A stretch of DNA of 64,000 bases from a virus. Below are positions 48,237-49,384 of the stretch, in pieces (the first letter of the stretch is position 1; each line of letters begins with the position of its first letter). The DNA lies in UHGV virus genome UHGV-0139776, one strand, 5' to 3'. A program made the translations under genes and the position numbers. The notes under the pieces are model-generated. The model was not told the origin of the DNA. It saw only the letters and a list, made by a program, of their open reading frames with translations, and ran no database searches.

Positions 48237-48641
48237 ATGAAAGGCGAAGTGAAAGAGCGCGGCATGATTTTCAACGATGAGATGGTCCGGGCCATCATCG
48301 AAGGAAGGAAAACGCAGACGCGGCGGATAATGAAAAATCAGCCTGCGGAAGTTGGTCCAGAAGCACCAGTGATGGTTAGAAAAATTGGTGCAGGTTTTCA
48401 GTGGTACGGGGCTGATGGTGTAAGCAGTGTCTTCAATTGCCCCTTTGGTATCGTCGGCGATCGAATTTGGGTTCGTGAAACATGGGCGATATTAGGCAAT
48501 GAGGATGGTTGTAGTGTGGACTGGAACGACAACCTTTGTCGTGGTGATGAGAAGAACGCAGCAAGGATTTATCGGGCCAGTTGTGAGCAAAAGCCTGGTG
48601 ATTACGGCTTATGGTCGATACCGGCTGTGAACATCCTCTGA
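48237..48641 (+). CDS. ASCH-domain-like protein, 134 aa
   Basis: N-terminal VRAIIEGRKTQTRR resembles the ASCH GRKT..R signature. Confidence 0.4.
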   Translation: MKGEVKERGMIFNDEMVRAIIEGRKTQTRRIMKNQPAEVGPEAPVMVRKIGAGFQWYGADGVSSVFNCPFGIVGDRIWVRETWAILGNEDGCSVDWNDNLCRGDEKNAARIYRASCEQKPGDYGLWSIPAVNIL

Positions 48642-49384
48642 CGTATCGCTTTATTCGTGAGGTTGTGAAGTTCTGGAACGTACCGCTAACGGTGTTGCAG
48701 GTCGATATAAATCCAGAACTTGGGCAGCCAAATGGTTATACGGAATGGGGACCAAAGGATATTCAGACGCGAACGCCGGTGCTTAAACCGTTTATGGACA
48801 TGGTTAAAAAGTACGGTACGCCATACATCGGCGGCGCGTTCTGTACTGACAGGCTAAAACTCACCCCTTTCACGAAATATTGCGATGACCATTTTGGGCG
48901 AGGGAATTACATCACATGGCTCGGTATTCGTGCGGACGAACCCCGTAGGCTGAAACCGAAACCGGGCGTCCGGTATCTTGCCGAGCTGTCAGATTTTGAT
49001 AAGTCGGATGTTATCCGGTGGTGGCGAAAACAACCTTTTGATTTGCAAATCCCGGAGCACCTCGGGAACTGTGTTTTTTGCATCAAAAAGTCAACGCAAA
49101 AGCTGGGGCTTGCATGTAAAGACGAACCAGGTCTGATGCGGGTTTTTAACGAACTGGTTACAGGCAAACACGTCAGGGATGGTCATCGCAGAACAGGTAA
49201 AGACGTTATGTACCGTGGTCACCTGACGCTTGACGGGATTGCCAGAATGTATGCCGACAGCGACTACAGAAATTTGTATCAGGCGATGGTGCAGGCCAAG
49301 CGGTTTGATACTGGTTCGTGTTCCGAATCATGTGAAATCTGGGGTGACCAATTGGAGTTGAAATTCGAAGAGGTAGTGGCATGA
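48611..49384 (+). CDS. PAPS-reductase-family (ATP-pyrophosphatase fold) protein, N-terminally short, 257 aa
   Basis: VDTGCEHPLTYRFI aligns to CysH DTGYLFPETYRFI; WLGIRADEPRR motif; no upstream in-frame extension (stop at 48599-48601). Confidence 0.5.
   Translation: MVDTGCEHPLTYRFIREVVKFWNVPLTVLQVDINPELGQPNGYTEWGPKDIQTRTPVLKPFMDMVKKYGTPYIGGAFCTDRLKLTPFTKYCDDHFGRGNYITWLGIRADEPRRLKPKPGVRYLAELSDFDKSDVIRWWRKQPFDLQIPEHLGNCVFCIKKSTQKLGLACKDEPGLMRVFNELVTGKHVRDGHRRTGKDVMYRGHLTLDGIARMYADSDYRNLYQAMVQAKRFDTGSCSESCEIWGDQLELKFEEVVA

Follow-up and report, generated by a model that had tools for sequence, protein, structure and literature searches.

Two overlapping open reading frames (ORFs) of 134 and 257 aa, at 48237-49384 of the P1/P7-like phage-plasmid UHGV-0139776, are in all probability (roughly 90%) a deletion scar, neither a short enzyme variant nor a frameshifted gene nor a split protein. 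Their ancestral state was two complete, separate genes encoding 242 and 290 aa, and a 463-bp deletion over the end of a pmgT/ASCH-like gene and the start of a NinC-like gene is very probably the cause of their present form. The window referred to below is the whole 64,000-nt stretch of DNA that was analysed. The scar is ordinary gene decay; the one point of wider interest is its left breakpoint, which was reused by at least nine deletions.

The 463-bp deletion and its genomic setting

The ORF list and the sequence bore out the layout given in a sequence-only reading of this DNA: a 134-aa ORF at 48237-48641, a 257-aa ORF at 48611-49384 beginning MVDTGCEHPLTYRFI, a 31-nt overlap at 48611-48641 that places the second ORF in the -1 frame relative to the first, and an upstream stop (TGA, 48599-48601) in the frame of the second. 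That reading had also correctly sensed a fault where the two ORFs meet, but none of the three explanations it proposed (a naturally short variant, a frameshifted gene, a split two-domain protein) held.

A BLAST search with window positions 48237-49820 returned 41 PLSDB records and 51 complete-E. coli-genome records at ≥80% query coverage. Among the matches listed, all were in two pieces, spanning 2044-2047 bp for the 1584-bp query, and the best was 99.9% identical. More than 50 plasmids (98-99.9% identity) carried 463 extra bases between the two matching pieces. In one of them, pE2865-1 (locus L004), this region holds two full genes 9 nt apart, at 1501-2229 (242 aa) and 2239-3111 (290 aa), named in RefSeq 'ASCH domain-containing protein' and 'phosphoadenosine phosphosulfate reductase domain-containing protein', respectively. 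Aligned base by base, window 46737-48622 corresponds to L004 1-1886 and window 48617-50782 to L004 2344-4509. The hexamer GATACC stands in L004 at 1881-1886 and at 2344-2349, flanking the segment that is absent from the window; the sole remaining copy of this 6-bp direct repeat (48617-48622) is the deletion junction and stands in place of 463 bp of the intact relatives. Imperfect similarity extends beyond GATACC on the flanks (TTATGGTCGATACC, TTATGG[TC]GATACC, vs TTATGGATACC). Lost with the deletion were 340 bp from the 3' end of the pmgT/ASCH-like gene, the whole 9-nt spacer and 105 bases at the start of the NinC-like coding sequence, and neither the deleted 463 bp nor the missing peptides had a second copy anywhere in the window (blastn, tblastn).

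Such a deletion would have arisen by microhomology-mediated illegitimate recombination at GATACC, through replication slippage or end joining. A loss of 463 bp, no multiple of 3, leaves the two frames unjoined, and the pmgT frame continues into ninC-like DNA for six codons (PAVNIL) before it reaches a stop. The ATG at 48611 corresponds to the pmgT codons TTA-TGG-TCG in another frame, so that the 257-aa ORF begins where it does by chance; it owes its existence solely to pmgT-derived TTATGGTCG, which supplies a chance in-frame ATG 6 nt ahead of the joint. This ATG is preceded at 9 nt by a weak Shine-Dalgarno-like GGTGA, and some translation of the 257-aa ORF may occur.

This arrangement bears directly on two of the earlier explanations. 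A frameshifted gene, or a programmed ribosomal frameshift yielding a pmgT-NinC fusion protein, could draw on the 31-nt overlap, across which the frames are joinable by a -1 shift. The coding sequence for the missing N-terminus, however, is absent from all frames and from the whole window, no X XXY YYZ slippery heptamer was found in the overlap (TGATTACGGCTTATGGTCGATACCGGCTGTGAACATCCTCTGA), and the overlap itself is a by-product of the deletion in one clonal lineage whose intact relatives have separate genes. We regard this explanation as barely credible. The idea of a split two-domain protein was contradicted by the same intact relatives, in which the two genes are separate and divided by the 9-nt spacer.

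The exact 134-aa and 257-aa products were found on six contigs (ENA ERZ27298966, ENA ERZ28622908, Logan SRR2912794 and Logan SRR30714237), all of which match the window at 100% identity over 2.5-6.8 kb, and the metagenome contig OBJQ01000118.1 has the same junction. Given the 100% identity of the compared allele-bearing contigs to the window, the deletion allele is, as far as sequence can tell, one recent clonal lineage. We did not find it in INPHARED phages, PLSDB, E. coli complete genomes or IMG/VR, and in complete E. coli genomes the site was intact in 271 of 278 records. An assembly or sequencing artefact, with collapse between short repeats, would fit a joint that lies inside a 6-bp repeat and an allele missing from curated complete-genome collections. 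Against this, the same junction was recovered from a megahit k119 assembly, a scaffolded metagenome, two Logan runs and another metagenome contig, in samples that may not all be independent, and 6 bp is far too short for a k-mer assembly to collapse. Because several assemblers gave the same junction, the allele is real, and an artefact is extremely unlikely.

Upstream of the truncated pair lie pmgS/shtB and pap, the latter encoding a HAD_PNKP phosphatase. Both truncated ORFs belong to an operon headed by a C1 repressor operator (OpmgT/Op88, ATTGCTCTAATAAATCT; 48042-48058, plus strand) that is the same as the annotated operator of phage P1 (NC_005856) and occupies a position equivalent to Op(hea) of P7. 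Between this operator and pmgT is a small hydrophobic ORF of 28 aa (MNTAFKIIMAAIYFWLFSITFGGIVAHG, 48141-48227), whose nearly base-for-base identical counterpart in phage P1 is unannotated. Eight regions are highly variable among P1-like phage-plasmids, and the pmgT-humD segment belongs to them (PMC9603915); in CRISPRi screens, both lambda ninC and P1 pmgT were reported to be non-essential (PMC10695390). A deletion in this variable, non-essential region is therefore unsurprising.

Positions 48617-49820 share 94% DNA identity with Stx2-converting phages, whose 292-aa counterpart is annotated NinC. The stretch is a 1.2-kb lambdoid module inside the P1-like backbone, 94% identical in Stx2a-converting phages, and contains the ninC-like gene with two accompanying small ORFs on the plus strand, one of 67 aa (phrog_1226, 49381-49584) and one of 79 aa (phrog_1344, 49577-49816). 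In lambdoid phages the NinC locus is in the early-left region, whereas the window copy is in a P1-like plasmid, downstream of pmgT. The right boundary of the module is a homology switch at 49802-49820, an RBS-plus-start-like stretch common to both sides (GGAGGCATCCAGTGAG): homology to the Stx2 phage VT2phi_272 stops at 49820, and P1/P7-like homology restarts at 49802. The 226-aa ORF at 49777-50457 has a C-terminal Cys-rich tail (CPHCG...CEGW) and no Pfam match. It is followed at 50445-51925 by Ead/Ea22-like coiled-coil genes that have N-terminal segments in common, repeated; the whole of 49777-51925 is highly mosaic and cassette-like.

The two truncated genes

pmgT/ASCH-like gene. The first ORF (48237-48641, plus strand) is a 3'-truncated pmgT/ASCH-like gene, in which codons 1-128 are native as far as ...YGLWSI and are followed by the out-of-frame PAVNIL and a stop. 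It is collinear up to 48622 with intact genes of 241-242 aa (96-100% identity). Its first 128 residues are 98-100% identical to P1 PmgT, which occupies the same place after pap and the C1 operator; unlike P1 PmgT, the window copy ends at residue 128 plus six frameshifted residues, without the C-terminal conserved half. For the intact form, identity to P1 PmgT is 97% over aa 1-232. The phrog_874 match of the 134-aa ORF covers the first 120 residues alone, and the protein lacks the C-terminal 113 residues, including a nearly invariant block (RPSIHMPRWASR..LEIT.VRVERL...AEG). With the conserved C-terminal half gone, we infer that the product is a non-functional remnant.

The earlier label of 'ASCH-like' for the 134-aa ORF drew little support, apart from the RefSeq name of its intact 242-aa homologue. 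The ORF had no match to Pfam ASCH (PF04266, gathering cut-off 21.2 bits) at E ≤ 0.1 and none to ASCH in NCBIfam. Sub-threshold Pfam ASCH matches were present in 37 of 71 full-length relatives (best E 7.7e-4), and in the full-length relative P0129 the match (18.4 bits) fell on residues 162-188, a stretch that is gone from the window ORF. The human ASC-1 ASCH chain 9kyk_A gave one 28-residue match (E 0.86), a PDB-sequence profile search gave no match, and the AlphaFold model of the full-length relative was poor (pLDDT 49).

Reference P1 carries the same ASCH-like protein as its PmgT (L097, NC_005856 989-1918; 309 aa, 'putative morphogenetic function'). A separate 3' deletion/fusion supplied the last 77 residues of this P1 protein, with the junction between ...CCCTGGGT and TACGAGG at 1 nt of microhomology, and the P1 reference pmgT is therefore itself chimeric.

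NinC-like gene. The second ORF (48611-49384, plus strand) is a 5'-truncated gene of the NinC-like PAPS-reductase family (PP-loop), in which the intact residues D36-A290 stand behind a fortuitous Met-Val from pmgT DNA. The PAPS-reductase relationship previously claimed for it is real. The profiles phrog_33262 (E 5e-80) and phrog_424 (E 2e-77), both 'phosphoadenosine phosphosulfate reductase', matched from about 35 positions in; for phrog_33262 the match started at profile position 36 in the window ORF and at position 1 in the intact protein. Pfam PAPS_reduct (PF01507, gathering cut-off 22.5 bits as a whole-protein score) gave 14.9 bits from profile position 31, below the cut-off, compared with 37.4 bits for the intact relative and 34.4 bits for Stx NinC, both above it. 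Judged by these profiles, the 257-aa ORF appears to be a NinC-like family member by descent, but a truncated one. It shares with NinC of lambdoid/Stx2-converting phages (phrog_424/phrog_33262; PF01507) the DTGCEHPLTYRF motif, the conserved cysteines and the two downstream small ORFs, and differs from the NinC of Stx2 phages in lacking the first 35-37 codons, SFSGGRTS among them.

Intact relatives have a length of 290-292 aa, with DTG at residues 36-38. The 290-aa relative has the N-terminus MHQVVSFSGGRTSAYLVHLMEAQRKAGASVHFIFMDTG, and the lost residues 1-35 are MHQVVSFSGGRTSAYLVHLMEAQRKAGASVHFIFM, including the PP-loop SFSGGRTS. The sequence-only reading had thus correctly seen that an N-terminal segment was missing and had misjudged its size, given as about 60 residues and in the NinC-like subfamily 35; the overestimate arose because CysH, with about 85 residues ahead of DTG, was the yardstick.

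The PP-loop (SGGRTS) binds ATP phosphate in the PP-loop superfamily. Near the N-terminus, SGGxxS was present in 116 of the 120 best homologue clusters, with DTG mostly at residues 33-40; of the four clusters without it, two were chimeras, one was a short C-terminal fragment and one was a JGI protein with a short N-terminus. Across 71 aligned full-length members, S6, S8, G9, G10, R11 and S13 were invariant. An AlphaFold model of an intact member (pLDDT 87, pTM 0.85) placed strand 1 at residues 2-6, the loop at 7-10, helix 1 at 11-25 and strand 2 at 30-36, and according to this model none of these four elements remains in the window ORF. In an alignment with CysH 6vpu, the lost segment falls on the CysH nucleotide-binding loop. 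No SGGxxS was found in the 257-aa ORF or in any frame of the window. From the missing PP-loop and core strands, the NinC-like product would be a non-functional remnant as well, and both ORFs are probably dead remnants.

The remaining explanation from the earlier reading was a naturally short functional variant, a subgroup that starts at DTG and can do without the N-terminal segment, possibly helped by a partner. In its favour, the ORF is long and open, begins with an ATG behind the weak GGTGA and keeps the conserved cysteines, and a JGI cluster (P0077, 259 aa) likewise begins shortly ahead of DTG. Yet the prevalence of the PP-loop (116/120 clusters) argues against such a subgroup, as does the full gene in 99.9%-identical relatives, and the start codon comes from the coding DNA of the neighbouring gene. 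The fold would be minus two core strands. A diverged lineage with the same short start was looked for among the homologues and none was seen: the only related copies with this N-terminus were 100% identical to the window. We therefore consider a short variant very unlikely and retain the deletion as the origin of the truncated ORF.

Six cysteines are invariant in the NinC-like family (C111, C124, C187, C190, C270 and C274), some of them forming a CxxC and a C-terminal CSESC, and all six are retained among the 255 kept residues of the window ORF (at 78, 91, 154, 157, 237 and 241). The best Foldseek matches to the modelled intact protein were CysH-type PAPS/APS reductases (6vpu, 2goy and 1sur; E 8e-6, ~20% identity). 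CysH and the intact NinC-like protein have in common a nucleotide-binding alpha/beta fold and the DTG...ETY.F motif, at a remote level (TM ~0.4-0.5). Three features set the NinC-like family apart from CysH: a canonical SGGxxS PP-loop, the six invariant cysteines and the absence of a C-terminal ECGLH catalytic motif; a regular-expression search for ECG[LI]H found none in the window ORF. Even the intact protein scored far under the cut-offs of NCBIfam cysH and PRK02090. PP-loop sulfur transferases (LarE, TtuA, DndC and TilS) were second-tier fold and weak NCBIfam matches of the intact protein (E ~1e-3); they have a PP-loop as in the intact NinC-like protein, and some have cysteine or Fe-S sites. 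By these motifs and matches, the intact NinC-like protein is probably a PP-loop ATP-using enzyme and not a true PAPS reductase, and the combination of PP-loop, six cysteines and no ECGLH suggests that it is possibly a metal or Fe-S enzyme.

Chimeric genes involving the NinC-like gene were represented by P0020, P0103 and P0060 (loci L095 and L096). P0103 combines a YfdP N-part with NinC at a joint between GGATA and CC, the same site as the right breakpoint of the window. P0020, found on at least 24 contigs, has a NinC N-part and a DUF551 tail, with the breaks after GGTA and after GGATA. P0060 has an Ead-like N-part and a joint between ...GGTA and TTCGT.

Reuse of the left breakpoint

Close homologues of the pmgT-like ORF included many C-terminal variants, all of which diverge directly after ...YGLWSI. 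At the DNA level, ...GATTACGGYTTATGGTCGATA was common to all variants and was followed by differing downstream DNA. At least nine junction types have their left breakpoint immediately after ...GGTCGATA (...TTATGGTCGATA, ahead of CC; after window 48621). They are those of the window, L011/L012, L013, L014/L015, L016, L017, L018, L046 (IMG/VR) and L079 (metagenome). The right partners are collinear in the window backbone, at about 49644, 49883, 50076, 50203, 51851, 53579 and 53723. Since they lie downstream and collinear, the events are rightward deletions of ~0.46-5.6 kb. In 7 of the 8 with an identified parent, the partner has TA, ATA or GATACC before the joint (2-6 nt of microhomology). The L017 joint has no microhomology, which pins the left break after GATA.

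Other rearrangement junctions in the 729-bp gene numbered about two to three (P0222, possibly P0123, and the 3' junction of P1). In the sample anchored at the 5' end of the pmgT-like gene there were no other deletion endpoints, and no leftward deletions from the breakpoint were found. Reference P1 was considered as a carrier of a junction at this site and rejected, as its pmgT is intact across it.

The recurrence of the left breakpoint means that the deletion may not be a purely random microhomology event. It could instead have begun with a site-specific break, nick or stall right after ...GGTCGATA (48621), followed by downstream microhomology joining, with the window allele as one product. 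Nine different junctions with one left endpoint point this way, together with the 2-6 nt of microhomology in 7/8 with known parents, the scarcity of junctions elsewhere in the gene, the exclusively rightward direction and the reuse of the NinC-side GGATA/CC site in the unrelated chimera P0103. On the other side, no recombinase site (by eye), hairpin, long repeat or, among the chromosomal matches listed, CRISPR-spacer-like match was found, the variants were partly ascertained with probes ending at the breakpoint, and selection to keep the promoter and upstream genes could also give rightward-only deletions. Taking both sides together, a site-specific start is a possibility that we hold tentatively, at less than even odds.

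Those searches were as follows. Folding at the breakpoint was no better than that of shuffled sequence (z = -0.79), and no meaningful repeats were found there. An 80-bp query of the intact site had five chromosomal matches in 5,426 E. coli genomes, and none among the matches listed was CRISPR-spacer-like; one sampled match (H163), and two chromosomal matches from another search (H80 and H91), spanned the full query and carried ASCH/PAPS-reductase annotation, as expected of integrated plasmid copies. By eye, we know of no convincing resemblance of the breakpoint to Cin/cix, Hin/hix, Xer dif/cer or loxP sites, the EcoP1I/EcoP15I cleavage distance or rolling-circle nick sites.

For the recurrence as such, the simplest reading would be a fixed DNA end or nick that is joined downstream by microhomology. 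In its fuller form, position 48621/48622 in pmgT would be a break, nick or replication-stall point that seeds rightward deletions of the pmgT-to-DUF551 region via downstream TA microhomologies, a previously undescribed polar hot spot; we put this forward as a conjecture that is somewhat unlikely to be correct.

Implications for annotation and variable-region remodelling

An annotation of this DNA should enter the 134-aa ORF as a pmgT remnant and the 257-aa ORF as a remnant of a NinC-like PP-loop gene. Names such as a new short PAPS reductase or an ASCH-PAPS reductase pair should be avoided, and the overlap of the two ORFs is no base for biology. Lying in a region of P1-like phage-plasmids that is known to be variable and non-essential, the gene pair is ordinary accessory cargo. 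If the polar hot spot is true, it shapes one of the eight variable regions, and the truncated pair of the window would be one product of it. A defined break or nick site, if true, would then offer a mechanistic handle on how variable regions are remodelled in phage-plasmids.
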